In this document: positions 39,405-57,932 of the stretch, piece after piece
How the letters are laid out: every line of letters begins with the position of its first letter
How positions within the stretch are numbered: position 1 is the first letter of the stretch
DNA from: Escherichia phage phiSUSP1
Sequence record: KT454805
DNA length: 64,000 nt
Reading direction: 5' to 3' (one strand)
Made by a program: the position numbers and the translations under genes
Notes under the pieces: model-generated
Told to the model about the DNA's origin: nothing
Databases searched by the model: none
The model's input: only the letters and a program-made list of their open reading frames with translations

Positions 39405-39455
39405 TTGCATCAACGGGCAAGCAAGCCCCAACAATCCTAAACTGGAGAATCTAAG

Positions 39456-39662
39456 ATGTTATATCAACGTGAATTAATGATTGTTGACAACAACAAAACA
39501 AAGAAACGCCGTTTTTATATGCTAATCTGCGACGTTTGGCAACGTATCTCAGAAAAGGATTTTGATAAATATGTTGATACGTCAATCAGGTCTGATTGTT
39601 ACTTGACAAATCACACAAGACAATTTACAAGACATACGGCAATTTATTACTATAACGTTTAA
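39456..39662 (+). CDS. small early-array protein
   Basis: preceded by conserved CAATCCTAAACTGGAGAATCTAAgATG cassette. Confidence 0.55.
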   Translation: MLYQRELMIVDNNKTKKRRFYMLICDVWQRISEKDFDKYVDTSIRSDCYLTNHTRQFTRHTAIYYYNV

Positions 39663-39674
39663 AAGGGCTTGACA

Positions 39675-39836
39675 ATGATTAAAGAAGGTTATGTAATAAA
39701 GTACAAAGGGCAAGACGGATACACAAAGTTGGGACGTGTTTTCTATCTCTATACTTCAGCGATGGGCAATGAGTGTATAGCCCTTACAAATGGCGACAAA
39801 ATAACCATGAAAGATTTTATAAAAATTATTTCATAA
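39675..39836 (+). CDS. possible 53-aa array protein
   Basis: ATG 39675 to TAA 39836 fills the gap between array genes; no conserved cassette. Confidence 0.3.
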   Translation: MIKEGYVIKYKGQDGYTKLGRVFYLYTSAMGNECIALTNGDKITMKDFIKIIS

Positions 39837-39841
39837 AGTGC

Positions 39842-39877
39842 TTTACATGGGGTTTAAAAGGTAGTATCTTAAGCCCC
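39842..39877 (+). promoter_or_regulatory. promoter-hairpin cassette (class A)
   Basis: TTTACA-N17-TATCTT with GGGG...CCCC stem. Confidence 0.5.
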
Positions 39878-39924
39878 AGATAAAGAGCTTTGCTAACCAA
39901 TAGTCCTAAACTGGAGAATCTAAA

Positions 39925-40305
39925 ATGAAATATCGTGCGCCTAAATTTATCAACAAAGAAAACTTTCGTGATGCTCTGGAAAAATCCATGAATGAGCAGT
40001 TCAAAGGTAAAATCATTGTTGTTCACGCTTACAATTTTAAGTATGATGTAAATGGTAACAAGATAAACCACTACACCGCTACAATGTTAGATGGTACACT
40101 CTCAGGAGAAAAGGCTATTATAAATGCACTGGCTGGACGTGGTAAAACGTTAATCCGTTGCGATAAGCGCCGCTATCAAGGAAGTGCTTATGGTTATGAG
40201 GATGCAATCTATCATCTTGATAACATGGGTTACAACGTGGTAAAAGCTGGAGTATCTCAAATGATTGGTAGTGATGGCTACGTAACAATCTTTGAAATTA
40301 ACTAA
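39925..40305 (+). CDS. small early-array protein
   Basis: conserved CCTAAACTGGAGAATCTAAAATG initiation cassette. Confidence 0.6.
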   Translation: MKYRAPKFINKENFRDALEKSMNEQFKGKIIVVHAYNFKYDVNGNKINHYTATMLDGTLSGEKAIINALAGRGKTLIRCDKRRYQGSAYGYEDAIYHLDNMGYNVVKAGVSQMIGSDGYVTIFEIN

Positions 40306-40313
40306 TAAAGTGC

Positions 40314-40349
40314 TTTACATGGGGTTTATAGTTCGATAGGATAAGCCCC
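40314..40349 (+). promoter_or_regulatory. promoter-hairpin cassette (class A)
   Basis: TTTACA-N17-TAGGAT with GGGG...CCCC stem. Confidence 0.5.
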
Positions 40350-40391
40350 AGATAAAGAACTTTATCACTAACCTAAACTGGAGTTTTAAAA

Positions 40392-40649
40392 ATGGCTACT
40401 ATCAAAAATATTGTAATTACTGCAAAGTCCCGTGATGACGCTCGCGCAACTGCTAAAAAATTAAATGGCAAAGTGGTTGACAACGGAAAAGAATCTGCTG
40501 TAAGATGGGGTGTAAAGACAGACAAGAAATTAACCCTTAAACATAGTTCTTACAACATGTTTAAAGGTGTGAAAACTATCGGTAACACTAATGTATTCAC
40601 AAAGCAAGGTTACAAAATGCACTTATCATTAACTGACAATTTAATCTGA
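40392..40649 (+). CDS. small early-array protein
   Basis: cassette variant CTAAACTGGAGTTTTAAAAATG. Confidence 0.55.
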   Translation: MATIKNIVITAKSRDDARATAKKLNGKVVDNGKESAVRWGVKTDKKLTLKHSSYNMFKGVKTIGNTNVFTKQGYKMHLSLTDNLI

Positions 40650-40657
40650 TAAAGTAC

Positions 40658-40693
40658 TTTACATGGGGTTTATAAGTTGTTAGTATAAGCCCC
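40658..40693 (+). promoter_or_regulatory. promoter-hairpin cassette (class A)
   Basis: TTTACA-N17-TAGTAT with GGGG...CCCC stem. Confidence 0.5.
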
Positions 40694-40740
40694 AGATAAA
40701 GAGCTATATTAACCAATAGTCCTAAACTGGAGATTCTAAA

Positions 40741-41253
40741 ATGAAAACCACTGATGCTATTTTTGAAGTTGTAAAAGAAAAATATACCATTATTTATGCA
40801 GCAGTTAATTTCTATGAGCCTTCCCATTGTGTGGATAACTGGCAATTTACTGATGAGCATAAAGGAGGGATTACAATCAAAGTTAAGAATGCAGAACGTA
40901 ACAGCTACAAATATGCAATCCCTACGCATTACCCACTTTCACAGCTTGCCAGTGACTACGCAAAACAGGGAAGGGATAACCCATCATTGGAAGCTTACAA
41001 GAGCTTACAGGATGAGCTAGAAAGGGATTTAGAAGCTAATAGTTATCTCTTGTATGCCTCAGTAATTGACGCTGAAGGGAACACGGTTTTAAATAGTTTT
41101 TCTCTTGCGTACTCTTTTGATTGGTGCTATCTTGACGGGGAAGATTTAGAGACACGTTTAGAAGAGGAAGTGTCGAACTCTGACGGGGAGACTGAAGTGA
41201 TGGAACGTTTAGAAGCCTTGAAAGATTCAGTTATGAATATCTTTAATATCTAA
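40741..41253 (+). CDS. small early-array protein (acidic)
   Basis: conserved initiation cassette. Confidence 0.6.
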   Translation: MKTTDAIFEVVKEKYTIIYAAVNFYEPSHCVDNWQFTDEHKGGITIKVKNAERNSYKYAIPTHYPLSQLASDYAKQGRDNPSLEAYKSLQDELERDLEANSYLLYASVIDAEGNTVLNSFSLAYSFDWCYLDGEDLETRLEEEVSNSDGETEVMERLEALKDSVMNIFNI

Positions 41254-41259
41254 AAGTGC

Positions 41260-41294
41260 TTTACATGGGGTTATCAAGTTGATAAGATAGCCCC
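41260..41294 (+). promoter_or_regulatory. promoter-hairpin cassette (class A)
   Basis: TTTACA-N17-TAAGAT with GGGG...CCCC stem. Confidence 0.5.
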
Positions 41295-41336
41295 AGATAA
41301 AGAGCTTTACCAACAATCCTAAACTGGAGAATCAAA

Positions 41337-41633
41337 ATGTTTATTTCCGCAAACGTTAGAACTAAATTAAGCCAACTATTAAACAACATTCAATTCATTG
41401 AATCTATGCGCCGTCAATCTGAAGCTGTAGAGTGGTATCATGGAAAGATTAACAAAAAAGAAGTAATAGTTTGTGTATGGAACTTTTGTAAAGAATACAA
41501 AAAGCCGTTGCTTCAGGTTGATATCTATGATAACACTAACAAATCATCAATTAAAACCACTAGAGATATGATTGATTCATACGAAATTAGTCACACTGGG
41601 AAACTATTTCACAAAGGTGTAAACAAATGTTAA
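41337..41633 (+). CDS. small early-array protein
   Basis: conserved initiation cassette. Confidence 0.6.
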   Translation: MFISANVRTKLSQLLNNIQFIESMRRQSEAVEWYHGKINKKEVIVCVWNFCKEYKKPLLQVDIYDNTNKSSIKTTRDMIDSYEISHTGKLFHKGVNKC

Positions 41634-41974
41634 TCACATATACAGCTATTTTTATCTCTATTGTGGCGCTCTATAAAGCCTTTAAAGCGCATCAGTTAGC
41701 TAATAAGGCAATCACAAGGGATTTAAAAATAAACCTTGTAAGGGGCTTTATAGAGCGTTTAAGCTTGGAACAATTGAAACGTTTAGAGATGAGCTTTCGA
41801 TTTAAAGCGGAGACATACAGAATTGACAACATTCTAGCAGGTGATTTTAAGCTAATTAGTGATTATGACATACTGTTAGAAGCAATTCAAGACATAAATT
41901 TAAAAGATTATTACATCGTAATAGCTCAAGAAATTAATAAAAAAGAGCTTGCAATGAAAAACCAAAACAAGTAA
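41627..41974 (+). CDS. small membrane protein
   Basis: N-terminal TM ITYTAIFISIVALY; start overlaps upstream stop. Confidence 0.45.
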   Translation: MLITYTAIFISIVALYKAFKAHQLANKAITRDLKINLVRGFIERLSLEQLKRLEMSFRFKAETYRIDNILAGDFKLISDYDILLEAIQDINLKDYYIVIAQEINKKELAMKNQNK

Positions 41975-42040
41975 AGTATTTATCAACGGGGAGGGAAAAC
42001 TCCCCCCACTAAGCAAAATTCCTAAACTGGAGAATCTAAA

Positions 42041-42313
42041 ATGTATACAACTAACAATGGTAATACCCTTAATGTAACTCTAAAGCACTATGTAGACGGT
42101 GTATTAAACTTTGAAGACTTGCAAGCGGAGCAACATTTATTAGATTGGCAAGTAGCAGGACTGCAAAAAACTGCTACGGGGTACGGTACAAAAATTCCTA
42201 CATCTTGGAAAGTACGCTATTTAGGAAAGTTACGAAGAATTTATCAAGATGTTTATAGCAATAGTGGTGTAAGTTACATTATTGTTAACGGTAAAAAGTT
42301 GTATTTAGTCTAA
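42041..42313 (+). CDS. small early-array protein
   Basis: conserved initiation cassette after GGGGAGGG...CCCCCC hairpin. Confidence 0.6.
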   Translation: MYTTNNGNTLNVTLKHYVDGVLNFEDLQAEQHLLDWQVAGLQKTATGYGTKIPTSWKVRYLGKLRRIYQDVYSNSGVSYIIVNGKKLYLV

Positions 42314-42321
42314 TAAATTGC

Positions 42322-42356
42322 TTTACATGGGGTTATCAGGTTGATAAGATAGCCCC
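42322..42356 (+). promoter_or_regulatory. promoter-hairpin cassette (class A)
   Basis: TTTACA-N17-TAAGAT with GGGG...CCCC stem. Confidence 0.5.
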
Positions 42357-42401
42357 AGATAAAGAGATTCATCTGACACTAACCTAAACTGGAGAATCAA
42401 A

Positions 42402-42809
42402 ATGACTACTATTAATCATAAAGAAGTTGCAATTCTGAAAGCACGTTTGACTATTAACCGTATCAACATTGTCACATCAGCAGCACCAGATGAAACATTG
42501 CATAATATTATTGGTAAAATTCAGGGTGTAGTAGTAGATGTAAAACAGATTAAAGAAGCTTTACAAGACGTAGCAGCGGGGGCTATAATTGACGGCGCAC
42601 AATATGAAATGCAGGAAATGCTTTCAAAATCTAGAGTAATGAATAAAGAATTAGACTTGAAAATGTTTCGATTTGCTGTTAAAGTATGGCTATGTGTTGA
42701 TTTTGATGCTAACTTTGCAATAGCTGATTTCTTTGCTACATGGTTACAGCGTAATTTACCATCAGAAAAATTTCGTGAAATTTGCGATGCAATTTATTCA
42801 GAAATTTGA
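42402..42809 (+). CDS. small early-array protein
   Basis: conserved initiation cassette. Confidence 0.6.
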   Translation: MTTINHKEVAILKARLTINRINIVTSAAPDETLHNIIGKIQGVVVDVKQIKEALQDVAAGAIIDGAQYEMQEMLSKSRVMNKELDLKMFRFAVKVWLCVDFDANFAIADFFATWLQRNLPSEKFREICDAIYSEI

Positions 42810-42893
42810 TTGACACTGCAAAAACATAGTAGTAAAGTACTCATCAACGGGGCAAGATAAAGCCCCAACAATCCTAAACTGGAGAATCTAAAA

Positions 42894-43142
42894 ATGTTTA
42901 ATATGCTGAATATCCCTGATACCTGCCGACTGTTAACACAACTTGAAAATCTTGGCAAGCCCTTTTTATATCATATGCCAGATAACACGGCAAAAACTTA
43001 CAGCTATATTGTGAATCGTTTCACGGCTTATGGTTCAAAATATGGTTACAATGTCAAGACTCAAAAAGTGACTTTGTTCACAAGTATTGAAGAGTTGCCG
43101 ACTGTTGCAGTTAAACTAATCTTTACAAAGAAAACTAAATAA
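42894..43142 (+). CDS. small early-array protein
   Basis: conserved initiation cassette (class B upstream hairpin). Confidence 0.6.
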   Translation: MFNMLNIPDTCRLLTQLENLGKPFLYHMPDNTAKTYSYIVNRFTAYGSKYGYNVKTQKVTLFTSIEELPTVAVKLIFTKKTK

Positions 43143-43147
43143 AGTCC

Positions 43148-43184
43148 TTTACATGGGGTTTATAGTTAGATAAGATAAGCCCCA
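43148..43184 (+). promoter_or_regulatory. promoter-hairpin cassette (class A)
   Basis: TTTACA-N17-TAAGAT with GGGG...CCCC stem. Confidence 0.5.
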
Positions 43185-43226
43185 GATAAAGAGCTTTACC
43201 AACAATCCTAAACTGGAGAATCTAAA

Positions 43227-43784
43227 ATGAAATGCTTTCATGGTACTACTCAAGAAAACTTTTTAAACCTTATCAATGGCGGTGAAAAACCATCAGGAGC
43301 TTGGAATTGCTCTGATATGGATGGATGTTTTTACGTGTATCCGGTTAATAAGTTCTATGATGTAGAAGACTTAGACGACGAACAAATCACTAGCGAGGGT
43401 ATTAGAAATGCACTTGATAGTGCAAGCATTACAGCAGCATATCAAATGAAATCACAAAAAATTGTCATCTTGGAACTTGACATTCCAGAGGAAGATTTAC
43501 AAGATGACTGGAGTTGTGAAAATATGAGCGACGTTGCAAGCTTTACAGAATACTTTGATAAAGAATGGATTAAAAAGATTTACACAACTGAATTTAACGG
43601 GATGTATGCACCTTTCTTTGTGCCTAACCTGAATAACAGGAATTTAGGATACATACCGGATGAGTTACGCAACATTGCAGCAATGATACAGCGTAGCGAT
43701 GAAATGAATAATGTGTATATTGATATCTTTGAAACTATGCAGACATACGTTTCAGAAACGTCTATAAGCGATTTAACAGCATAA
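43227..43784 (+). CDS. small early-array protein
   Basis: conserved initiation cassette. Confidence 0.6.
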   Translation: MKCFHGTTQENFLNLINGGEKPSGAWNCSDMDGCFYVYPVNKFYDVEDLDDEQITSEGIRNALDSASITAAYQMKSQKIVILELDIPEEDLQDDWSCENMSDVASFTEYFDKEWIKKIYTTEFNGMYAPFFVPNLNNRNLGYIPDELRNIAAMIQRSDEMNNVYIDIFETMQTYVSETSISDLTA

Positions 43785-43847
43785 ACTATAGAATCATACC
43801 AGATAACCATAAAAGCCCCGCATAGGGGCTTACAGGAGCTTTAAAAG

Positions 43848-44078
43848 ATGCTTACAACAATCTATCTTATCCTTTCCTTGTCTAATGGTGCTGAATGGAA
43901 CTTCAAAGGGCTTGAAGAGTTCACAGGAAGCAAGGAAAACGCCATTGCAGCTTGTCAGATAGCAAGACTTGACTATCCTGCCAGCGATGATATACAATGC
44001 TACTTCAAGACAGAAGATGAGGAATCAATCTATTTTGATAGTATAGATGGTCAATATGAGATTCTTATAGAAAAATAG
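43848..44078 (+). CDS. small early-array protein
   Basis: own AGGAG RBS after AGCCCCGCATAGGGGCT hairpin. Confidence 0.5.
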   Translation: MLTTIYLILSLSNGAEWNFKGLEEFTGSKENAIAACQIARLDYPASDDIQCYFKTEDEESIYFDSIDGQYEILIEK

Positions 44079-44088
44079 TTGACACTGA

Positions 44089-44117
44089 AAAACAAAACAA
44101 GTAAAGTACTCATCAAC
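44089..44117 (+). promoter_or_regulatory. sigma70-like promoter (class B cassette)
   Basis: TTGACA-N17-TAAAGT followed by CATCAACGGG...CCC hairpin and conserved initiation cassette. Confidence 0.45.
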
Positions 44118-44155
44118 GGGAAGCAATCCCACAATCCTAAACTGGAGAATCTAAA

Positions 44156-44377
44156 ATGTTGCAAATCTTGAATGTAAAAACCATTGATTTTAAAGCCTTA
44201 AATGTTCGCCGTACCTATTTACAACCATTCAATAATCCTGTTAGAATATCCAACGATGACGCTAAAAAGTTAATTGATGAGATTCTAGCTAATGGCGGTT
44301 ATCTGGCAAGCCATAACCAATATGATGATGAGGATGGAAGCCTGATAAATGAATTTACATATTATTACTACAAATAA
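44156..44377 (+). CDS. small early-array protein
   Basis: conserved initiation cassette. Confidence 0.6.
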   Translation: MLQILNVKTIDFKALNVRRTYLQPFNNPVRISNDDAKKLIDEILANGGYLASHNQYDDEDGSLINEFTYYYYK

Positions 44378-44389
44378 CTAATAAAGTGC

Positions 44390-44425
44390 TTTACATGGGG
44401 TTTAAAAGGTAGTATCTTAAGCCCC
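44390..44425 (+). promoter_or_regulatory. promoter-hairpin cassette (class A)
   Basis: TTTACA-N17-TATCTT; identical to the copy at 39842. Confidence 0.5.
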
Positions 44426-44469
44426 AGATAAAGAGCTTTACCAACAATCCTAAACTGGAGAATCTAAAA

Positions 44470-44811
44470 ATGGCATATGTAACAATTATCACTGATAAAG
44501 AAAATTCGTCTTGGTCAACTCAGGTTAGCGACAAAATGACTCCTATGCAGTGTCTCAAGTACTTTGAACAGTGGAATCGTGGAGAGGATGTTAGCCCCTT
44601 TCAAGTGATGCAAGTTGTACACGTTGACAATGACGGCAACAAAACAACCCTTAACACTGAATACTATGCAAGCCGTTTTGAAACTAGAGCGGAGACAATG
44701 AAGCAATTACGTGAGAAGGGTTATAGTCACATAGCGGGATTAATCTGGAATGACTTACTAAAACAGCAGCGTATGACATATGTTAAGCCAGAAAAAATCT
44801 TTATAAGCTAA
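44470..44811 (+). CDS. small early-array protein
   Basis: conserved initiation cassette. Confidence 0.6.
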   Translation: MAYVTIITDKENSSWSTQVSDKMTPMQCLKYFEQWNRGEDVSPFQVMQVVHVDNDGNKTTLNTEYYASRFETRAETMKQLREKGYSHIAGLIWNDLLKQQRMTYVKPEKIFIS

Positions 44812-44843
44812 TCAACAACTTATAAAATTCTTTGAAAAAACTG

Positions 44844-44872
44844 TTGACATTGCCCCTTGACAATAGTACATT
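44844..44872 (+). promoter_or_regulatory. sigma70-like promoter
   Basis: TTGACA-N17-TACATT (second TTGACA in spacer). Confidence 0.5.
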
Positions 44873-45008
44873 TGTTCGAGGGGGTTTATCTAAAAGGATT
44901 CACTTAAAAGATTCTTTATAGATAAGCCAAAAATTACTTGCAAGACTCTAAGCAATTCTGTATAGTTCTATTCAAGCGATAAAACAATCCTAAACTGGAG
45001 AATATAAG

Positions 45009-45536
45009 ATGAATAAGTTCAATGCAATTAACGCTATCCGCTCAAAAGATGTAATGAAAAAACCTGTAAAAGACACTTTCGAATTTACCCTTAAAAACAA
45101 GTTGTTTGCAGTTATCACAAAAGGGGAAGATAAAAAGTATTACATTCATCGCCCCAATCAGAAAACGGTAACCACTAACAACTTTATGCAAGCCGTGGCG
45201 GTCATTCTGCCAGATTATATGGCTATTGTCGCAGAGATTCACGAAATGGCTATAAAAGCAACTAAAAACGAGTTAAATCGTTACAAAATGGCTTATGAGC
45301 GCTCTATTAAGTCTCACAATCTTTTTATTGCAATTCATCATACAGGGATGTATGCTATGGGAACGGGTAACCAACAATCCCCGCTCTATGATGTAGAAAA
45401 CATCTTTACAAGTGACTACCCGACAACTAAATTTAAAATTACGTTAGGGGAAGCATTAACTAGAGGGATTAAGCTGTACGAACAATCTTTAAAAAACTTA
45501 GAAAATTCACTTGACGAAATCATCAGAACTCTATAA
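45009..45536 (+). CDS. small early-array protein
   Basis: cassette variant CAATCCTAAACTGGAGAATATAAGATG. Confidence 0.6.
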   Translation: MNKFNAINAIRSKDVMKKPVKDTFEFTLKNKLFAVITKGEDKKYYIHRPNQKTVTTNNFMQAVAVILPDYMAIVAEIHEMAIKATKNELNRYKMAYERSIKSHNLFIAIHHTGMYAMGTGNQQSPLYDVENIFTSDYPTTKFKITLGEALTRGIKLYEQSLKNLENSLDEIIRTL

Positions 45537-45597
45537 AGTACTCATCAACGGGGAGGGAATGACCTTCCCCCAACAATCCTAAACTGGAGACTAGAAA

Positions 45598-45861
45598 ATG
45601 AATAATCAAGAAATCACTATCATGTTACAGATTGGTACTGACAAAGAAGATATCCAACTTTGCAAACGTATCGAAAGTGATTGGTTTAATGGTGAAATCA
45701 TCGCGGAGTCTTATGAGGTAGTTGGATTCATGAATGGTGAAATCGTAAGCCATTTTGGTTTAACTAAATCTGAAGCAATTGTAAAGTATGACGTTTTATC
45801 TTGTGAGATTCTTACAAAATACAACGAAAAAAGACTTGCAACATACGCCGCAATGAATTAA
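45598..45861 (+). CDS. small early-array protein
   Basis: conserved cassette after GGGGAGGGAATGACCTTCCCCC hairpin. Confidence 0.6.
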   Translation: MNNQEITIMLQIGTDKEDIQLCKRIESDWFNGEIIAESYEVVGFMNGEIVSHFGLTKSEAIVKYDVLSCEILTKYNEKRLATYAAMN

Positions 45862-45924
45862 TATTACTTTCAACGGGGAGGGAGACTTCCCCACTAACCC
45901 AAAATCCTAAACTGGAGATTCAAA

Positions 45925-46176
45925 ATGGCTACTATCCGCGCAACTGTTAACAACTTCGGCTTCAACGTACTAGATGTTAAATTTGATATGGTTGGCACTG
46001 GTGATGCTTTCGGTATGGTTGAAATGTGTCTGAAGGCAACTATTCAGGACTATAACCCATCAGAACCATTCTGGAAGGAAACTAAACAGGAAGTCTTAAA
46101 AGATGGGGTAACGTCCTACTATTGGGGTGATTCTCTTATCACACTTTACTACCAAAAATTCGGTGTGATTAACTAA
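45925..46176 (+). CDS. small early-array protein
   Basis: conserved cassette after GGGGAGGGAGACTTCCCC hairpin. Confidence 0.6.
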   Translation: MATIRATVNNFGFNVLDVKFDMVGTGDAFGMVEMCLKATIQDYNPSEPFWKETKQEVLKDGVTSYYWGDSLITLYYQKFGVIN

Positions 46177-46217
46177 CAGGACGCCGCAACGGGGCAAATA
46201 GCCCCAGACACCTTTAC

Positions 46218-46240
46218 AGCCCCTTAAATGGGGCTTTTCT
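46218..46240 (+). terminator. rho-independent terminator
   Basis: AGCCCC-TTAAAT-GGGGCT followed by TTTTCT; ends plus-strand array. Confidence 0.6.
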
Positions 46241-47830
46241 ACGTCTATGAGATAGAACTCTATCGAATCCTATATACAGAACCCTTCCTAGAATCTTAGA
46301 GATTCATCTAACAAGTTAGACTCATACCAGACATTTAGAACAATAACTCTATAGCTTACTCTATATCTTCTTATCAAGTCAACTACAATATAAGCCCATA
46401 ACCCGAAAGGGAAGGGCAATCTCTAAAACGCTCTATAACGCTCTATACGGGCTTATCATCTCATCTTAAGCAATCATATTAATCCATTCTTAAAAGCCCT
46501 TTATAGAGCTTCCTAGAGCCTTAAAAGAATCTTATAAGGGAGTAAGCTTATAGGCTGGATAGAATCTTGTGAATAATTAAAAAGGGGCTTGATAGTTACT
46601 TAAAAGTATGTTATGGAGGTTTAAAAGAGCCTTAAAAGTAACGTAAAAGTTAGCCCCCTTTACATTCTCTTAACAAAATCTTAACAAATGCTACATAGTT
46701 ATGCTTATTAGAGACTTGTTAGGGTCTTGTTAAATCCTTGTTAGAGGTATGTTAAAAGCTTGTTAGACTCTTTGAAGTCCCTGTATAAGCCCCTAGAAAG
46801 GGCTATAAAGAGCTGTACAGGTAGTTGGGGTGTAGTTACTAGGGAGAAGCTTAGAAGAGGCTATATAGAGCTATACAGAGCTTTTAAGAGGGCTTTTAAG
46901 AGAATCACTAAGAAGGGGAAGGGAACTATAGACCAGAGATAGTGACCATGTTAATAGCTTGTTAAAAAGGTTTAGAACTTATTAGAGCCTTGTTAATTAT
47001 CTTAACAAAATAACTCTTAAGATTTAACTATTTAGCAACTTATAAGCAACTTGTTAGACTCTTGTAAGCAATGTTACAGACTTGTTAAACCCTTGTTAGT
47101 TATGTTAAGGGTCTGTTAAGAACTTTGAAGAGATGTTAAGAGCTTGAGAGAGTTGTTAAGTGATTGTTAATGATATTTTAAGATTTTGCAAAGGGGATGT
47201 TACAGGGCTGTTTAGGGCTACCAAGCAGATATACATCCTATGTAGATATTTTTGAGTTACTCTCAAGACCCTAAAAAATGACTTGACAGTTCTATTTTAT
47301 AAAAATTTATGAGTTTAGATATTTCTAAACGAAATACTAAAGAATTGCATAAATATCTATATAGTATTCTGTATAAAACAGGTAAATACAGGCTTATAAG
47401 ATACCTTGTTAACACCGTGTTAGACCTTGTAGGATAAGCCTTAGAAGGTGATACCTGTTTAGTTAGTTAAAACAGTCTATATAGAGGATTAGTAGAACCT
47501 AGTGAATACCCTATAGAGAGTCATATCGTTAACATAGAGATTAAGATGGGTATAGGGGCTTCTAAGGGGATAGGAAGAGATGGTTAAGGTGATTGTATAG
47601 GTTTAGAAGAGAGATGCTTAGAGGGCTATTTAGAAGGGTTATACAGAGAGCTATAGAGACTCACTGTTAAGGGACTAAGAGACTATATAGCACTATATAA
47701 CACTATATAACTATATAGAGAGTAAGATTAAGTAGGCTGTTAAGAAGGGTAGATATTTTATCACATGATATGGTGACCCAAGATGAACGGAGTGAATCTA
47801 AATTTTATAAAAATTATAAATTTCGTAAAT
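46241..47830. repeat. non-coding iteron-rich region
   Basis: no credible ORF; more than ten TTGTTA(A/G) copies plus ATGTTA/CTGTTA variants, often ~11 bp apart, and repeated CTATAnAGAG motifs. Confidence 0.7.
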
Positions 47831-47840
47831 TTTACTCAAT

Positions 47841-47862
47841 AAAAAGCCCCATTGAAGGGGCT
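47841..47862 (-). terminator. rho-independent terminator
   Basis: minus-strand reading AGCCCC-TTCAAT-GGGGC followed by TTTTT, just after stop of ORF 47871..48485. Confidence 0.6.
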
Positions 47863-47870
47863 GTATAGTT

Positions 47871-48485
47871 TTACATCACTTCTTTGAGCATTGCATTCAA
47901 TGAGGTCTTAGTCGTTTGGAAGAAGTGTGTGAACCCATTGTGACGTTCTCTTACCTGAAGCATTATCTGGTCACCCTTAATTGGATGTGAACTGATATGG
48001 TATTCATTCAGGTTCAAAACTGCACTTCCACCTTCAAAGATGTGTCTCAGGTATGTAGCATCAATAAATTCTTCTTTACCTGTGACCTTGATGCAAACAC
48101 CCTTATTAACTCGTTTAGGATTAATATCTTCCATCACAAGCATTTGTTGTCCACCAAGTGAAACCATAGAGAACTCTTGACGGTTCTGCTGCTTAACATA
48201 CATCTCAAGTTTCTGCAAAGTGTCTTTATAGAACGGATAAGAATCTTTAACAAAGATACCTTTTAGCTGCTCTTTACCATCTACAAACTCTCTTGAATGC
48301 CTTAGTGACATTACAATTTGTTGAAGCTGGTCTCTGCACTCAGGTGATAAGTAGTTATCAATATCTTCCAAACTTAGTACCAAGTACTTTCTCTCTAACT
48401 CAAATTCTCTTTTTCTCATCTCAAAACCCTTCAAAGTGTTTACAGTGAACTTAACCATTTCCCAATACTGTTCAGTAACTATCAA
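47871..48485 (-). CDS. hypothetical protein
   Basis: 204-aa ORF, last gene of minus-strand block. Confidence 0.45.
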   Translation of the reverse strand: MIVTEQYWEMVKFTVNTLKGFEMRKREFELERKYLVLSLEDIDNYLSPECRDQLQQIVMSLRHSREFVDGKEQLKGIFVKDSYPFYKDTLQKLEMYVKQQNRQEFSMVSLGGQQMLVMEDINPKRVNKGVCIKVTGKEEFIDATYLRHIFEGGSAVLNLNEYHISSHPIKGDQIMLQVRERHNGFTHFFQTTKTSLNAMLKEVM

Positions 48486-48952
48486 CGAATCACCTCGTAA
48501 CGTGGTACAGCAAATTTGTTATCACCTGCATCAAGTATTAAGTCTTCTTTAGAGACGATAAGACGATACCCACAAAGATGTGCATAAGGTTTAGCATATT
48601 CAAAGATGCTTATAATGTATGTACCATCACTGTAGACCTGCTCTACTTCACCCTTAGCAATCACCTGCTGAGTCTGGAAGTCTTTAATTTGATATAGATT
48701 ACCTACTTTCACTGGAGGTTTCATTTCAGGTTCTTTAAACTCTTTACCAACCTTGATATCACCTATCAAATTAGAACTGTCAAAAGCTGCATGAATCATG
48801 TAGGCTTCTGAGCATTCCCAAATAAAGCTATGGAGCAGAACCTTTGCAGCATGTCTTGAGCAGTTCAGTTTGTCGCAGATATCTTTGTACATCTCGTCTT
48901 TGGTGGAGTTGTCAAGCATTGACTTACGTACAATCTCTTTAACATTCTTCAT
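48482..48952 (-). CDS. hypothetical protein
   Basis: 156-aa ORF, ATGA-type overlap. Confidence 0.45.
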   Translation of the reverse strand: MKNVKEIVRKSMLDNSTKDEMYKDICDKLNCSRHAAKVLLHSFIWECSEAYMIHAAFDSSNLIGDIKVGKEFKEPEMKPPVKVGNLYQIKDFQTQQVIAKGEVEQVYSDGTYIISIFEYAKPYAHLCGYRLIVSKEDLILDAGDNKFAVPRYEVIR

Positions 48953-48994
48953 TTTCGCTACCTTTTAAAGAGGGGCTGTTACACCCCTTTGAAA

Positions 48995-49231
48995 TTACTC
49001 TTCAGTCTTATTCTCATCAGACTTTTTAGTTTTCTTCTCAGCTTTCTTAGGCTTCTCTTCAGCCTTAGCTTCTGTCTCATTTTGAGTTGCCTGAATAGCA
49101 ATGTCAACAAGTTTTGCCAAGTCTGATTTAATCACCGTAACAGGTTGCTCGTTGTAGTAGCTTTTGTCAAGGTGCTCTTTCAGTTCGTTAAGAGAGCTAA
49201 AACCAAATGGTTGAATAGGTGTCTTAATCAT
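48995..49231 (-). CDS. hypothetical small Lys/Glu-rich protein
   Basis: 78-aa ORF. Confidence 0.4.
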   Translation of the reverse strand: MIKTPIQPFGFSSLNELKEHLDKSYYNEQPVTVIKSDLAKLVDIAIQATQNETEAKAEEKPKKAEKKTKKSDENKTEE

Positions 49232-49305
49232 TTATCACTCCTTATAGGCATCTTTCAGGATTGCTTGGTTAATCATATCAGCAATTGCATAACGGACACA
49301 TACAG

Positions 49306-49842
49306 CTAAAATCTTAGGTTGCATTCTTTACTTACCTCTTCAAATTTATTCTCAGCGTCCACAAGTCGTTTCTTATGAACCTTCATTCTCCAATAGGCAG
49401 CAATCATACCAGCAATTGGAAGTACATACAAGAACCAGAGTTCACCAAGTTTCTTCTCGGTCTGATTCAGTGTTAAATCTTGGTTGTAAAAACCCATAAA
49501 GGAGATTACACAAATCATCACAAGGAAGATTCCAAGCATCAGGATAGTTCCAGCCCAACCTCTGGCTTTATACTCACTGCTTGTGCAGTCATTCTTTGCT
49601 TGAACAAGTTCGTTGTAGTCATTAATAAAATCTCGGTAGAATGCTTTCAGATATTCTTTGCTGTAACCTTCAAAGCACCCTGTACCAAACCAATTATCAC
49701 CTCCGAAGTGGGAGATAACACCTGCTTCACCATTTGGCTTAGTAATCTTCAGAGATACATGATGGTTAGACTGCTGAAAAGAAATCACATCACGGCTATC
49801 TTCGTAAATCATTTTGCTACCCTCTCTAAACGAGCATTCCAC
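49306..49842 (-). CDS. membrane protein (two predicted TM helices)
   Basis: GTILMLGIFLVMICVISFMGF and LYVLPIAGMIAAYW hydrophobic helices. Confidence 0.4.
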   Translation of the reverse strand: MECSFREGSKMIYEDSRDVISFQQSNHHVSLKITKPNGEAGVISHFGGDNWFGTGCFEGYSKEYLKAFYRDFINDYNELVQAKNDCTSSEYKARGWAGTILMLGIFLVMICVISFMGFYNQDLTLNQTEKKLGELWFLYVLPIAGMIAAYWRMKVHKKRLVDAENKFEEVSKECNLRF

Positions 49843-50030
49843 TCAATATCCATCAGACGTTTGAAAGTTTTACCTCTTGGTGTAACATGAGGCATCCCAT
49901 CATGCACTGTGCAATACAGAATATCACCTTCAGATTTCTTACCGTAACACTGCTTAGTCTTTTTGGCTTTCCTGTAGGATTCTGTAGCAGCAAGCATCCA
50001 GTACTCACCAAGTGTTGTAAATTTTTTCAT
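49809..50030 (-). CDS. hypothetical small protein
   Basis: 73-aa ORF. Confidence 0.3.
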   Translation of the reverse strand: MKKFTTLGEYWMLAATESYRKAKKTKQCYGKKSEGDILYCTVHDGMPHVTPRGKTFKRLMDIEWNARLERVAK

Positions 50031-50764
50031 TCGTTCACCATAGCGTTGTAGAACTGACGTTGAATTTCTTCAGCAATCTGATGAGGTGTTAAACCAGCTT
50101 TCATCATCATCCTCACGGTGTACTCAATATCTCCGTGTTTTACTACTCTCTCCGTGATAAACGCTGCTTCTCTCACCTCTTCAGCAGATTTTACATCCTC
50201 TTCACATTTACTTGTCAACATTGAATCAAGTTTTGTTTGAGGTGTGAAGTAGTGGTGATGTTGACTGCCTGAAGAGAAAGCTTTGAAGAAGTCTTGGGCT
50301 TTGTCAACAACTACTGAAGCTGCGCCATTAGCATCTGCCTTAGTTGTGAAACGTGCTGTACCATAGTCATGTTTAGGCAGGTCTTCTGCTTTTAGGGCAG
50401 GTGCTTCACATGTATCCTTCGAGATTTCACTTTTATTATCTTGTACAACACTCAGGCTTAACATGAGGGCATCCTTCCATGTACCAGTAAACATGCCTCT
50501 GTGAAAATCATCAGTTGAGTAAACTTGACCAGCATAAATCCTCTGCTCAACATTGTTGACCATGAATGTCATATTTGCTATTGGTTTAAAGTAAACTCTT
50601 CCAGTGTCTGATACAAATGTCACATCTGCATAAACTGTATCAGCACCAGCTATTGAAAATCGAGATGTGTTAGCAACATTGATAGTTATTACATCACCTT
50701 TTTGTACTTTCATTTTACTTTCCTCGCATATGAAAAAGGGACTACCCTTAAGTAGCCCCATCAT
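50027..50764 (-). CDS. hypothetical protein
   Basis: 245-aa ORF; true start may be internal (MKVQKGD). Confidence 0.4.
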   Translation of the reverse strand: MMGLLKGSPFFICEESKMKVQKGDVITINVANTSRFSIAGADTVYADVTFVSDTGRVYFKPIANMTFMVNNVEQRIYAGQVYSTDDFHRGMFTGTWKDALMLSLSVVQDNKSEISKDTCEAPALKAEDLPKHDYGTARFTTKADANGAASVVVDKAQDFFKAFSSGSQHHHYFTPQTKLDSMLTSKCEEDVKSAEEVREAAFITERVVKHGDIEYTVRMMMKAGLTPHQIAEEIQRQFYNAMVNE

Positions 50765-50791
50765 ATAGAAATCTGTATACTGCTGTCAAGA

Positions 50792-51382
50792 TTATTTTTT
50801 AGGCAGTAATGCACTACGCCTGTTTCGTTCGTTCTCAAGCATAGAGATAAAGTCATCTTTAGCACCACGCCAAGGGCTAAACCCAGGAATATGCTCACGA
50901 ATAGCTTCAACTACAGTCTTCAGTGCATTGTTTTTCATCCACCAATCAGGGCTTGAAGCAGCAGTCACGTAGAACTGTGCATCATCTGTCAAAACTGGTT
51001 CAGTAATGCAAGGAGAGGTGTACGTAGTGATAATTGCACCACTATTCATGTAGTATGTACGCTTCAGAACCTTTTCAAGCAGCTTGTGCAGGTCACCAAA
51101 CAGTGAAACTACGTCACGATGGTTAATATCTTTGTCAAGGGTTGCACGATACTTCAAAAGTGCTGCATCAACCTCTTTGTCGTTATACTTGAAGTACTGA
51201 ACTTCTTCGATAACACATGCAGAGATGTTGTTAACGTTCATCGTCACTGTACAAACCTTTGCAGGTGAGTTAACAGTTGGTTGGAATGCTGCAAGAATAC
51301 CTTCAATGTTACCAAAGTGTTGTACAAGGGTAACTTGTGGCATAAACTCTTCTTGATTCTCTGGCTTTACTTCTTCAGACAT
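50792..51382 (-). CDS. hypothetical protein
   Basis: 196-aa ORF. Confidence 0.4.
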   Translation of the reverse strand: MSEEVKPENQEEFMPQVTLVQHFGNIEGILAAFQPTVNSPAKVCTVTMNVNNISACVIEEVQYFKYNDKEVDAALLKYRATLDKDINHRDVVSLFGDLHKLLEKVLKRTYYMNSGAIITTYTSPCITEPVLTDDAQFYVTAASSPDWWMKNNALKTVVEAIREHIPGFSPWRGAKDDFISMLENERNRRSALLPKK

Positions 51383-51819
51383 TATAGTTTCCTCACTAAA
51401 TATTTTTTAAGTTGTGTGTTAGGAGTTTCAAAGACCTCTAAAGAAGAAATCTTGATGTTATCACCACGCATGTTTGTATGGCGGTAAATGTAGTACTCCA
51501 ACATGCCTATGTGTTTTGCTGGAAGGTCATGCTTGACGAAAACTGTTACGCTATCCTCAAACTGTAAGACTCTGACACCATCTTTGTATTTAAACTCTTT
51601 AGGATGCTGGTAATCTCCTAAATCACACATGATAAAGAGCCTTGAACGGTGCTTGTCAACTTGTGAAGTCAAAGCATTCTGCATATCCGCAAAGCTCTTG
51701 TAAACAACAACGTGTAACTTAGTCATCACGGTATTCCCTGACGAAGAAATAGTTAACTTTGTTGCCACCAATAAGTAACTCGAAGCAGGTGTTCTCAAAA
51801 GGTGTCTTTGAGGCATCAT
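51382..51819 (-). CDS. hypothetical protein
   Basis: 145-aa ORF, start uncertain. Confidence 0.35.
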   Translation of the reverse strand: MMPQRHLLRTPASSYLLVATKLTISSSGNTVMTKLHVVVYKSFADMQNALTSQVDKHRSRLFIMCDLGDYQHPKEFKYKDGVRVLQFEDSVTVFVKHDLPAKHIGMLEYYIYRHTNMRGDNIKISSLEVFETPNTQLKKYLVRKL

Positions 51820-52012
51820 ACGTAGTGTACGGTTCAGACACCTGCTTAGTGGTGAGTTTCTTGTTGGCTGGATTTAAGAGGCCACCATAAAGTTTCTTGA
51901 TAGCCTCTTCAACGACACTCCAAGTCATGTCGTCGGTTATTTCTTCGTACAGGTCGAACTCTCGTTCAAGAACAAAGTCACAAATCGGAAAGACAACCTG
52001 TAAACGACTCAT
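51719..52012 (-). CDS. hypothetical protein
   Basis: 97-aa ORF overlapping neighbour; uncertain. Confidence 0.3.
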   Translation of the reverse strand: MSRLQVVFPICDFVLEREFDLYEEITDDMTWSVVEEAIKKLYGGLLNPANKKLTTKQVSEPYTTYDASKTPFENTCFELLIGGNKVNYFFVREYRDD

Positions 52013-52500
52013 TAGCGAATTACCTGTGTGACCTGAATAGCTTCGGTAACAGAAATGTCACCAACTTTTTCTTCAGTGACAAAAGTGAAGGTTAGCTCTA
52101 CAGGCTCCTTCTCAACTTCCAGTTCTACAGGAACACCGTTCAGTTCATCAAAGATTGATTGGGTAGTCCAATCCTCCTGACCATCTGGGTAGTGGATAGC
52201 ATAGAACGGGAACTCTACATCATACCAACCAAATACAGGACATCCATCTGCATCATTGTATCTGTGTTTCAGTACGTTTCCAGTTCTTACAAAACGCAGT
52301 CTCAGACTATTGTCTTGCATAAAAATAACAGCATCTGAGTAACGCTCACCAAAGTCACTGTGTGGTGTTACGTCAACTTTTACAGAAATCTCTTTACTCA
52401 TAATAACCTCTCTCAGCTTTTTCAATCTTGTCCAGAAGCTTGATGCACTGGTTGTTGTGGTAGTTAGCCTCACCCTGATGCAAAGCTTTCTGCTTCTCAA
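52012..52500 (-). CDS. hypothetical protein
   Basis: 162-aa ORF, start uncertain. Confidence 0.35.
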   Translation of the reverse strand: MRSRKLCIRVRLTTTTTSASSFWTRLKKLREVIMSKEISVKVDVTPHSDFGERYSDAVIFMQDNSLRLRFVRTGNVLKHRYNDADGCPVFGWYDVEFPFYAIHYPDGQEDWTTQSIFDELNGVPVELEVEKEPVELTFTFVTEEKVGDISVTEAIQVTQVIR

Positions 52501-52792
52501 GTAGGCTTTTATAGTAACCGGAAAGCTGCTCTCTTGTCAAGGGGTGTTCTGAAATAATGTCTAAACCATTCTCACCAAGTGGACTGAACATACCTTCACC
52601 ATCCACGTTGTACATACTTCCTACATAGAAAGCGTTGTTAGCAATCGTGATAGGCGAACGTTCAATCACTTCTATGATAAACTTTGTATAAACCTTCTCA
52701 CCCAACGTTACAATCTTGCTTCCACTGATACGAACCTTCATACCACTACGGGTGTATTTGAAAGTCCCAACATCACTAGCCCAAATCTTCAT
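52394..52792 (-). CDS. hypothetical protein
   Basis: start moved to MKIW ATG with GGAG RBS, downstream of terminator 52810-52832. Confidence 0.35.
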   Translation of the reverse strand: MKIWASDVGTFKYTRSGMKVRISGSKIVTLGEKVYTKFIIEVIERSPITIANNAFYVGSMYNVDGEGMFSPLGENGLDIISEHPLTREQLSGYYKSLLEKQKALHQGEANYHNNQCIKLLDKIEKAERGYYE

Positions 52793-52809
52793 AGTTTTCT
52801 CCATAGAAA

Positions 52810-52832
52810 TAAAAAGGCTCCCGAAGGAGCCT
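52810..52832 (-). terminator. rho-independent terminator
   Basis: minus-strand reading GGCTCC-TTCG-GGAGCC followed by TTTTT, after endolysin stop. Confidence 0.6.
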
Positions 52833-52841
52833 CTAAATCTA

Positions 52842-53306
52842 CTATTTCGGATAAACAGCGTCAAGGTAAATTTTTGCTTCTAAACTACGTCTATTTTTCA
52901 GACCCTTAGAAACTTCTTTCTTACCGTTGACTGTTACCTTGTTCCACCACTGCATAGCTTCAGCACAACCAGCCTTATTACCAGCATTGTGACGCTTGAT
53001 GAAAGTGGAATCTCTCATAGCTGTGATGCCAATGTTGTAAGTTTCTACAACGAGAGCATCAAACTCATTTTGGGAAGTTGGAACCTTGATAGCTTTGTTC
53101 ACCGCACCAACATAGCTTTCAACATCTGCAAGCAGATACTGTTCAGCTTGTTCAGAAGTAATCTTCATACCCATCGTAACAGGTTTACCACCAATACGGA
53201 TTGTCCCGTACCCAATTGTTGGGATTCCAGCAGAGTCTTTATAGGCTTCTAGACGAAGCCCTTCAAAAAACTTAATTGCTGCAAGCCCCTTATCAGAGAG
53301 TTGCAT
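52842..53306 (-). CDS. endolysin (GH24 phage lysozyme)
   Basis: FEGLRLEAYKDSAGIPTIGYG matches T4-type lysozyme [20 protein letters not shown]. Confidence 0.85.
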   Translation of the reverse strand: MQLSDKGLAAIKFFEGLRLEAYKDSAGIPTIGYGTIRIGGKPVTMGMKITSEQAEQYLLADVESYVGAVNKAIKVPTSQNEFDALVVETYNIGITAMRDSTFIKRHNAGNKAGCAEAMQWWNKVTVNGKKEVSKGLKNRRSLEAKIYLDAVYPK

Positions 53307-53308
53307 TA

Positions 53309-54193
53309 TTAACCTCCTACTTCGTTAACCACAACAGTAGCTGCATTAGAAGTCACAGAACCACCTGCACCAGTAACTACACAAGTGTATGTTCCGGCAT
53401 CATCAGCAGTTGTTGCATCCTCTTTTGTGTAAGTCGCTGAAGTTGCTCCAGAGATGTTATCAGCACCTTTCTTCCACTGGTAACCAGTTGCTCCAGTAGC
53501 CACGATGCTCAACTCAAGAGTGTCACCTTCAGTGATTTCAACGTTTTGCGGCTGCGTAGTGATTACTGGCAAAGCATTCACTGTCACAGTTGCAGCATTT
53601 GACGTTACAGTTGCACCACCTTCACCAGTTACTACGCAGGTGTAAGAACCAGCATCAGCAGGTACTACATTTGATTTGGTGTAAGTTGCAGATATTGCAC
53701 CGGAGATGTTACTTGCGCCTTTCTTCCACTGATAACCCGTAGCACCAGTTGCAACAATACTCAGAGTCAGCGTTCCACCCTCATTAACGGTCTGGTTAGT
53801 TGGCTGTGTAGTAATCACTGGAGGAACTACAGAATCTTTCAGTTTTGCGTTGAGCATTGAGAAAGGTTTAACTCTTGCAAGCCATTCACAGTAAACGGTG
53901 TCAACATCTTTACCGTTGATGATTGCATACTGCAAATCCATGAAGAAATCAGCAGTTCTCATTTGAGCACCAACGCTGTAAAGAAGTTCTGAACTGAATG
54001 GGACTGTGTAGGCTGGCTCATAAGCAAAGTTGGTAACCTCTGCAATATCTGCTTCAGGCCAAGGTGAACTGTAAGTCAGTGGGAGAATAGCTTCCTGATA
54101 TGTTCTGAAGTCATATCTTTTACCAGCTTTAACGTTCGCAATAAAACCTTTAACGAACTCTTTAAAATCTGGATATGTTTTTGCCTTAATCAT
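53309..54193 (-). CDS. Ig-like domain protein (possible virion decoration/adhesion)
   Basis: two tandem ~80-aa repeats (VITTQP...GATGYQWKKGA...YTCVVTG...VTSNAATVTVN); N-domain paralogous to ORF 54186..54560. Confidence 0.55.
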   Translation of the reverse strand: MIKAKTYPDFKEFVKGFIANVKAGKRYDFRTYQEAILPLTYSSPWPEADIAEVTNFAYEPAYTVPFSSELLYSVGAQMRTADFFMDLQYAIINGKDVDTVYCEWLARVKPFSMLNAKLKDSVVPPVITTQPTNQTVNEGGTLTLSIVATGATGYQWKKGASNISGAISATYTKSNVVPADAGSYTCVVTGEGGATVTSNAATVTVNALPVITTQPQNVEITEGDTLELSIVATGATGYQWKKGADNISGATSATYTKEDATTADDAGTYTCVVTGAGGSVTSNAATVVVNEVGG

Positions 54194-54560
54194 TTTTATT
54201 AGCCTCTAATCTTGCATTTAATCTAAAGTAGCCTTTGTGTTGCGGAGAAACATCACCAAGAACTACACCTTCAATTTTATATCCCTTACCCATCACATAC
54301 TGAATATCCATCAGGAAAGTACCCAGACCAACAATGTGAAACATTGGGTAGAGTAATTCTTCAGAATCTGGTAGGTCAATTTTAGGAGTGTATTTGAAGG
54401 TTGCAGTGGTTGGTGGGATATCCGTTTCAGGCCATTGACTAGTACGCCACGTTAAAGGAGTTGGGAGAACATCATCAAGATTATATCTCTCACCTTCTTC
54501 AATTGTTTGTACATAGGATTGTAGGAAGCAGTAAAAGTCTTTTCCACTCTTCGCCTTCAT
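54186..54560 (-). CDS. paralog of Ig-like protein N-terminal domain
   Basis: FLMDIQYVMGKG and ELLYPMF align with FFMDLQYAIINGK and ELLYSV of neighbour. Confidence 0.45.
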   Translation of the reverse strand: MKAKSGKDFYCFLQSYVQTIEEGERYNLDDVLPTPLTWRTSQWPETDIPPTTATFKYTPKIDLPDSEELLYPMFHIVGLGTFLMDIQYVMGKGYKIEGVVLGDVSPQHKGYFRLNARLEANKND

Positions 54561-54579
54561 TATCTATCCTTAAATAATT

Positions 54580-54598
54580 AAAAAGGGGCTTTCGCCCC
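54580..54598 (-). terminator. rho-independent terminator
   Basis: minus-strand reading GGGGCG-AAAG-CCCC followed by TTTTT. Confidence 0.55.
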
Positions 54599-54605
54599 GA
54601 AGTAC

Positions 54606-55196
54606 TTAAGCTTTAGTCTTAAGCAGGTTTTTAAGCTTTTTGAGATTCATAGTCTCATCAAACTTAAAGCCGAATCCATTGACGTATTCAATGAACTCAG
54701 ATTTCTTACTCAAAGCAAGTGCGTAATCCATGTCGAAATCATTGCTTGGAGTTGCGTCTGGTGTAGTGTTCACATCAAACGAGATATCTGTAGGTGTCAG
54801 GTCACCACTTCTCATGTTGTCCACAAGAACGCATGTGTAGTTTGCTGGATAGAATGATACAGAGCCATCAACATAAGTGTACTTGTCATTGTGGATAAGA
54901 TTTGAGAAGACCTTCAGGAAGGTTTCAGCGTCGTGACAGACAAGTTTAAACTTACTTTCTGCACCAAGAGCCATTAAGGAGTATGGACATTCTTCGCTTA
55001 GGTCGTATGAAGGGTTCACATTACATACCGTCACACGCATCAGGTTATTTGCAATTGTCTTCTGTTTAAAAGTGTCAGGTACGTAGTGCATACCTCTTCC
55101 ACACTGATTAACCAACTCTTTTAAGAGGTCATTTGCATAAGGTGAAGTGACGGATACAGAACCATCACTATTATAATTAAAACTTACGGTTAACAT
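54606..55196 (-). CDS. hypothetical protein
   Basis: 196-aa ORF. Confidence 0.4.
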   Translation of the reverse strand: MLTVSFNYNSDGSVSVTSPYANDLLKELVNQCGRGMHYVPDTFKQKTIANNLMRVTVCNVNPSYDLSEECPYSLMALGAESKFKLVCHDAETFLKVFSNLIHNDKYTYVDGSVSFYPANYTCVLVDNMRSGDLTPTDISFDVNTTPDATPSNDFDMDYALALSKKSEFIEYVNGFGFKFDETMNLKKLKNLLKTKA

Positions 55197-57682: not shown

Positions 57683-57699
57683 AAAGTTTTAAAAAGGGT

Positions 57700-57925: not shown

Positions 57926-57932
57926 AATTAAT

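Follow-up and report, generated by a model that had tools for sequence, protein, structure and literature searches.

Escherichia phage phiSUSP1 (sequence record KT454805) was analysed over a window of 64,000 nucleotides (64 kb), the whole stretch of DNA considered here, and our main finding concerns a 1.6-kb gap without genes at 46241-47830, with convergent terminators on both sides. Very probably its central part, 46653-47222, is the direct terminal repeat (DTR) of a linear genome, exact, short and non-permuted, and this repeat carries a helically phased array of TGTTA motifs whose core has hardly changed among related phages. The initial annotation of this DNA had listed a genome terminus or packaging region among its candidates for the gap, and that candidate has been borne out in that the central 570 bp match the terminal repeats of relatives boundary for boundary. 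The terminal repeat itself is an ordinary, already known feature; the phased, invariant TGTTA array inside it appears to be undescribed, the literature that we found giving repeat lengths only.

About 250-280 phage records match the gap, all of them Ounavirinae (Mooglevirus, Felixounavirus and Suspvirus), and there are weak matches also to Erwinia Kolesnikvirus phages. Its closest relatives are Moogleviruses of Citrobacter and Shigella, with ~84-88% identity across the gap and a maximum of 95.4% in its central part, and by these matches the phage is placed among the Felix-O1-like Ounavirinae as a Mooglevirus-like member. The predicted DTR is 89.5-95% identical to those of the closest relatives, and the phage is identical to no record. 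More widely, the DTR can be aligned end to end at 78-95% identity, and the neighbouring genes in several relatives are only partly alignable. The non-coding spacer to the left of the repeat is 80-94% identical to its counterparts, equal to or above the neighbouring genes, and the spacer to the right has ~73-77% identity across almost its full length.

The boundaries of the repeat carry most of the argument. Exact terminal repeats were extracted from four records, namely HP1 (570 bp), Pr103Blw (581 bp), E9 (580 bp) and CRP22 (579 bp), and all four have the left boundary ...GTTACGTAAAnnCTA^GCCCCCTTAACAT and the right boundary ...GTTAAGGGCTACC^AAGCAGATATACA, where the caret marks the edge of the repeat; the forms common to them are ...TA^GCCCCCTT, extended (T/A)ACAT, on the left and GGGCTACC^AAGCAGATATACA on the right. 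In the window we find ...GTAACGTAAAAGTTA^GCCCCCTTTACAT at 46652^46653 and ...GGGCTACC^AAGCAGATATACA at 47222^47223, and both boundary sequences are invariant across the 13 aligned phages to which the conservation values below refer. The interval that they delimit, 570 bp, has the length found in HP1, Mordin, Moogle and Sf17. In the records of Pr103Blw and HP1 the annotated repeat falls within the homologue of the gap, and the order is the last rightward gene, ~460 bp, the DTR, ~630 bp and the first leftward gene. Several other records begin at or near the predicted left end: the first base of a 571-bp query aligns to position 1 of records D4, I14.1 and H12, and those of GE_vB_7A and ECOH1 open within a few bases of the left DTR boundary. 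Published descriptions agree with a repeat of this kind, as the Pr103Blw repeat was given as 581 bp by PhageTerm, with the class called as DTR and not pac (PMC8303462), the source paper of E9 cites PhageTerm for its ends (PMC11737134), a repeat of 613 bp was reported for Ro111lw (PMC6454146), and Mooglevirus vB_CbrM_HP1 has been described as carrying a direct repeat at each of its two ends (PMC9120918). In UAB_Phi87 the two boundary motifs enclose 614 bp, consistent with the repeat of 608 bp obtained there by experiment. For HP1 and CRP22 we found no stated end-mapping method.

Conservation of the ends reaches beyond these genera. Erwinia phage vB_EamM-M7, which belongs to another genus, has an exact terminal repeat of 444 bp whose ends lie at most 2-3 nt from the homologous positions, and blastn still aligns a single part of the gap to Erwinia Kolesnikvirus phages, 47134-47235, which runs across the right boundary. 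This element is 91-93% conserved across the 13 phages, and we regard it as a candidate recognition and cleavage site. One further record, that of Citrobacter phage BSwM KMM2 (OP902295.1), has a so-called DTR that proved to be just a 64-bp overlap and was thus unused. The overlap, by which a Nanopore assembly was called complete, stops near the true right DTR boundary, and we interpret it as an overlap of the assembly, not as a ~570-bp repeat.

Why, then, is the repeat found in the middle of the sequence? Phage assemblies frequently lack their DTRs, and linearisation of a contig frequently leaves the repeat in its middle (PMC10438801). Judged from its sequence, the window is a collapsed, permuted assembly or a concatemer-junction form with the repeat present once, because the boundaries map inside the window and the repeat has a single occurrence there. 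In virion coordinates 46653-64000 would be the left 17 kb of the genome and 1-47222 would belong to its right part, the predicted terminase cuts being those at 46652^46653 and 47222^47223. Synteny with HP1 predicts that the large terminase gene lies just past the end of the window, ~17.4 kb from the left end; its HP1 counterpart matches Terminase_6N/6C.

Both transcription units end at this junction (coordinates in Table 1). The hairpin of the left terminator, AGCCCC-TTAAAT-GGGGCT followed by a T-tract, has a fold energy of -14.9 kcal/mol (z = -3.2), and the Mordin and Moogle records mark a terminator at the homologous site; the right terminator is annotated in the relatives Mordin, Moogle and wV8. 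The terminators and their flanks are mutually inverted copies at 93% (46212-46238 versus 47842-47868, inverted repeat I4). Because both end units are closed by terminators, the junction between them is insulated from read-through. The initial annotation had placed the terminators at 46218-46240 and 47841-47862 and had seen no credible open reading frame (ORF) in between, and we agree on both counts, the left hairpin having been folded and the right terminator found at 47845-47862. There are seven ORFs of at least 30 aa in the gap, with lengths of 31-60 aa; six are interrupted in relatives by stops or frameshifts, and the seventh (47160-47255) lacks its start codon in relatives and crosses the predicted physical end. 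With none of the seven conserved in relatives, we reject the gap as coding DNA. No 3-base periodicity was found in the gap, the largest ORF (60 aa) had no PHROG match, and a scan of 45800-48200 against Rfam up to E = 1 returned no match. Curated records of relatives (Mordin, Moogle, Sf17 and wV8) likewise place no gene in the homologous stretch and annotate both terminators.

The most distinctive feature of the repeat is its TGTTA array. Measured against 1000 dinucleotide-preserving shuffles of 46241-47830, the plus strand has 12 copies of TTGTTA[AG], with 0.4 ± 0.7 expected, and 23 of TGTTA, with 2.3 expected, so that the claim in the initial annotation of more than ten TTGTTA(A/G) copies holds; so does its mention of repeated CTATA(N)AGAG and of short direct repeats near 47680-47715, with six copies of CTATA.AGAG where 0.1 are expected and four of ACTATATA where 0.2 are expected. 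A further motif, CTTAAAAG, has four plus-strand and two minus-strand copies (0.1 expected). Of the 23 TGTTA sites on the plus strand, 18 fall within the DTR, which also holds three inverted copies, and five lie in the flanks. The earlier suggestion of repeat arrays that flank a terminal repeat was therefore right about the association of an array with the repeat and wrong about the flanking, TGTTA being mostly inside. With 21 sites the DTR stands far above the remainder of the 64 kb (1.9 ± 1.4 per 570 bp, maximum 7), and there is no TGTTA cluster outside the DTR in the window. The DTRs of relatives have 18-22 plus-strand TGTTA sites each.

Spacing within the array is that of the DNA helix. Successive TGTTA sites are 11, 11, 11, 11 ... 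11, 31, 61, 20, 11, 11, 9, 11, 20, 20, 11 and 33 bp apart, Tandem Repeats Finder (TRF) reports many arrays of period 10-12 in the gap, and the self-identity of the gap is 0.365 at lag 10 and 0.360 at lag 11 against a background of 0.26 ± 0.015, with a peak of 0.44 at lag 11 in 46653-47222. Beyond this local regularity the sites share a phase of 10.4 bp over ~480 bp, all on one helical face, with a resultant length of 0.80 that none of 5000 random placements equalled, and the spacing of ~11 bp in the initial annotation, correct locally, is thus refined to a whole array in phase at 10.4 bp. A phase of 10.2-10.45 bp is present in all 13 of 13 DTRs despite lengths of 570-659 bp, and those DTR indels that exceed 2 bp measure 11 or 22-24 bp, that is, whole units. 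In the alignment the TGTTA core columns are 97.7% conserved versus 82% for the other DTR columns (p = 2e-10), and conservation falls to 58-69% in the columns 3-4 bases either side of the core. The motif persists in Erwinia M7 as TGTTAAGA, with inverted copies in the left half of its repeat and direct copies in the right half.

What might such an array do? The virion would have the repeat at both ends and the replicating concatemer one copy per junction, as has been described for phages of this type, in which the second copy is synthesised at packaging (PMC10438801). By analogy with T7-type phages, terminase would recognise the junction and cut at the two invariant boundaries, strand-displacement synthesis would duplicate the repeat so that each packaged genome end receives a copy, and after infection and injection the repeats would support the formation of concatemers. 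The anatomy of the array leads us to propose, tentatively, that it is a platform on which an oligomeric protein of the packaging or end-processing machinery, one that recognises DNA, binds cooperatively; this protein would bend or wrap the repeat and thereby offer the boundaries for cleavage. A more specific version, which we hold to be doubtful at present, is that the array may dock a small-terminase equivalent or an end-binding protein, and that the wrapped complex spans the repeat and positions both cuts. A small terminase has not been annotated in the Ounavirinae (PMC4837284). The 68-aa ORF upstream of the HP1 large terminase has no recognisable DNA-binding domain and gave only sub-threshold hits to domains of unknown function (DUF), and it was rejected as a small terminase on these hits.

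A number of points weigh against this interpretation. The assignment of the terminal repeat rests on homology with relatives, and the ends of several relatives come from PhageTerm or from unreferenced record annotation and not from wet-lab mapping. For UAB_Phi87 the measured repeat, determined with Bal31 digestion plus run-off sequencing (PMC4837284), is 608 bp long, 6 bp off the 614 bp that the boundary motifs delimit; these boundaries were taken from motifs inside the record, the start of which (JN225449.1) was rejected as a physical end as it opens in the tRNA cluster. The 13 aligned phages are related, and the statistics of conservation and phase are not 13 independent observations. Phasing in M7 is marginal (p about 0.06). 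Finally, the array could instead serve replication, end protection or intrinsic bending.

Would an origin of replication explain the gap better than a terminus? On that account, which is compatible with a terminus, an initiator would bind the phased repeats as iterons, and 47281-47360, which is rich in AT, would be an unwinding element; we consider it unlikely. The repeats are indeed dense and in one orientation, but a core of 5-7 bp that recurs at 10.4-11 bp is unlike the units of 17-22 bp of classical iterons, and although 47281-47360 is 80% AT and includes the invariant box CTATTTTATAAAAATTT, the gap has no exact DnaA box (one match with one mismatch at 46568) and no IHF consensus, and the flanking genes belong to PHROGs of unknown function with no recognisable initiator. 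The cumulative GC skew has its maximum at 47-48 kb; however, this turn is uninformative because the coding strand switches at the same place. Also, the array fills exactly the interval between the mapped genome ends, which argues for an end-related role. The term "iteron" and the origin proposed with it in the initial annotation find no specific support, given the short core and the lack of both an exact DnaA box and a recognisable adjacent initiator gene. As to other packaging signals, a pac site as in headful phages (P22, P1, SPP1) was rejected, since the exact repeats of relatives, taken from independent records, share their boundaries and PhageTerm gave the class DTR for Pr103Blw (PMC8303462), and P1-type GATC elements are impossible because GATC is absent from the window. 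Neither Chi nor GATC was found in the gap.

There are two other explanations that give the array no part in packaging. It is feasible, if very unlikely, that the array is a functionless residue of slippage or recombination within a real DTR, perhaps with some intrinsic curvature, that binds nothing. That indels come as whole 11- or 22-bp units is what slippage would produce, and the 10-12 bp arrays of the flanks differ by genus, with CTTAAAAG and CTATA here and CTTCTAA in Erwinia M7. Against this, the core is 97.7% conserved and the spacers drift to 58-87%, which points to selection on the core, the TGTTAAGA motif survives in another genus with an otherwise unalignable DTR, and the helical phase is maintained over 480 bp in 13 phages. 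Most improbable of all, in our view, is a transcriptional control region or small-RNA locus between the terminators, with the repeats bound by a phage regulator. The insulation of both sides by terminators would suit such a locus, but the promoter-like matches that it could call upon are not enriched (9 found versus 9.5 expected), and the TTGACA at 47284 is missing in Mordin, Sf17 and HP1 and has no properly spaced -10 hexamer. No Rfam family was matched up to E = 1, TGTTA clusters, unlike operator sites, are absent elsewhere in the 64 kb, and the physical ends would split the region in the virion.

Table 1. Features of the predicted phiSUSP1 terminus and its surroundings, in window coordinates (the caret marks the predicted edge of the repeat)
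Feature	Position	Strand	Remarks
Rho-independent terminator	46218-46240	+	Closes the rightward small-gene array, the right-end transcription unit in virion coordinates
Unique non-coding spacer, 412 bp	46241-46652	.	Last right-end gene to DTR
Predicted DTR, 570 bp	46653-47222	.	Boundary homology
Inverted TGTTA pair, TCTTAACAAAA twice, 11 bp apart	46668-46688	-	Left DTR edge
TGTTA array A	46704-46767	+	Six 11-bp units (C)TTGTTA(A/G)nnn, the first unit degenerate
Second motif family in DTR	46793-46913	+	GCTATA.AGAG and GCTTTTAAGAG units, 10-12 bp
TGTTA array B	46947-47008	+	Sites 46949, 46960, 46991; then inverted TTAACAAAA at 47002
TGTTA array C	47049-47202	+	Ten sites, 47052 to 47198, 9-33 bp apart
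Right-boundary element	47134-47235	.	Spans ...ATTTTAAGATTTTGCAAAGGGGATGTTACAGGGCTGTTTAGGGCTACC^AAGCAGATATACA; recognisable in the widest phage range
Unique non-coding spacer, 608 bp	47223-47830	.	DTR to the first left-end, leftward-transcribed gene
Rho-independent terminator	47845-47862	-	Closes the leftward gene block; terminator scan and fold

Several smaller elements surround the array. The left spacer contains arrays of CTCTATA and CTTAAAAG with a period of 10-12 bp (TRF and motif counts), and a near-invariant box, AAAGT(A/T)ACGTAAA, stands at 46635-46647, a few bases 5' of the left boundary. The left flank of the M7 repeat has ~15 copies of (T)CTTCTAA(A/G) where the window has the CTTAAAAG and CTCTATA arrays; because this flank carries a different motif, the flank arrays are genus-specific, the TGTTA motif inside the repeat being common to both genera. 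At the left edge of the DTR the inverted TGTTA pair has a TRF period of 11 with a 100% match and is near-invariant in the alignment, and the two DTR edges form an imperfect inverted repeat (46655-46689 versus 47173-47207, inverted repeats I2 and I6). A block of 30 bp in array B, 46987-47016, is 95% conserved. In the right spacer there are the invariant AT-rich box CTATTTTATAAAAATTT at 47292-47308, a TGTTA pair at 47407 and 47418, an array of ACTATATA at 47682-47718 (TRF) and an AT-rich tail at 47799-47834; a scan for AT-rich stretches gave 47281-47360 and 47801-47840. Directly 3' of the CTATTTTATAAAAATTT box an insertion of ~29 bp, ATGAGTTTAGATATTTCTAAACGAAATAC (~47309-47337), is private to phiSUSP1 among the 13 aligned phages and creates a spurious 42-aa ORF at 47309-47437.

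Other observations were made elsewhere in the window. The tetranucleotide GATC does not occur in the 64 kb, where a Markov model predicts ~234 copies, or in any relative's locus that was checked, including 45 kb of HP1; CAGCTG, CCATGG, CACGTG and other 6-bp palindromes are also absent. The absence of GATC suggests a lineage-wide avoidance of GATC-targeting restriction or of Dam-dependent processes, and we found no mention of it in the Felix O1 genome paper. In the small-gene array that ends at the left terminator, 39426-45937 contains twelve copies of a leader, (C)AACAATCCTAAACTGGAGAATCTAAAATG, each directly 5' of a small rightward gene, and a conserved hairpin, CTTTACATGGGG...CCCCAGATAAAGAGCTTTACCA, stands in front of six to seven of the twelve. 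This hairpin matches a direct repeat of 57 bp that has been reported in Felix O1 (PMC3185647), and in Mordin a 14-bp repeat_region is annotated at the leader sites. The same array has sigma-70-like promoters of the form TTGACAC-N17-TAAAGT, followed by a conserved CATCAACGGGG box, at ~42810, ~44080 and 41950. Four tandem-like copies of a ~43-nt repeat (...TTCATTTCCAATTTGTGCAGGT) lie at 39001-39204 with a spacing of 41-75 bp. Finally, 25 plus-strand tRNA genes are located at 57849-63578; the homologous cluster of HP1 is annotated with 21, and Felix O1 has 22 tRNA genes (PMC3185647).

If the terminal repeat is as we propose, the true genome ends are fixed: the left end of the virion genome would be 46653, and the right end should carry a second copy of 46653-47222. 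This is of some practical consequence, as a permuted record with a collapsed repeat affects genome length, annotation, engineering and the regulatory dossiers of therapeutic Felix-O1-like phages. For the biology of these phages, the footprint described here, with its invariant 5-bp core, its phase of 10.4 bp that survives unit-sized indels and its boundary box kept as far as Erwinia phages, offers a testable target for how Ounavirinae concatemers are recognised and cut. A docking platform of this sort, if true, would be an architecture of packaging recognition not yet described for myoviruses with short DTRs.

How does this terminus compare with systems that are already known? It is closest to the DTRs of Felixounavirus and Mooglevirus phages, with 78-95% identity over 570 bp, the same boundaries, the same position in the gap and 18-22 plus-strand TGTTA sites, although the phiSUSP1 repeat is seen once inside the sequence and those of relatives are at record ends. 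Short protein-binding elements clustered at a terminase cleavage site are also found in the hexamer arrays of P1 pac and in the R sites of lambda cosB. P1, however, packages by headful, with permuted ends and with GATC-containing elements regulated by Dam, and lambda has cohesive ends; the phiSUSP1 window has no GATC, and the ends of its relatives are exact. With iteron origins the array shares tandem direct repeats in the same orientation and an AT-rich stretch nearby, but it has a 5-7 bp core per helical turn versus units of 17-22 bp, and it is bounded by genome ends.

The comparison with T7 ends made in the initial annotation concerns the closest analogue of the array, and it stands, since at the T7 junction CCTAAAG occurs 13 times in one orientation, within the 160-bp repeat and next to it (computed on the T7 sequence). 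There are clear differences, in that the T7 heptamer recurs at ~12-13 bp and is not helically phased, whereas the TGTTA(A/G) motif here has a local spacing of 11 bp and a global one of 10.4 bp, and the phiSUSP1 repeat exceeds that of T7 3.5-fold in length. In T7 the early promoters lie just inside the left end, whereas here each of the two ends is the 3' end of a transcription unit. A relative's large terminase belongs to the Terminase_6N/6C type, in a subfamily without an annotated small terminase, which also sets this system apart from T7. As there is no sequence similarity between the two, the resemblance is one of organisation only: a short, exact, non-permuted DTR, present as one copy per junction, with the same logic of duplication at packaging (PMC10438801), and a dense array of short repeats in one orientation at the junction.

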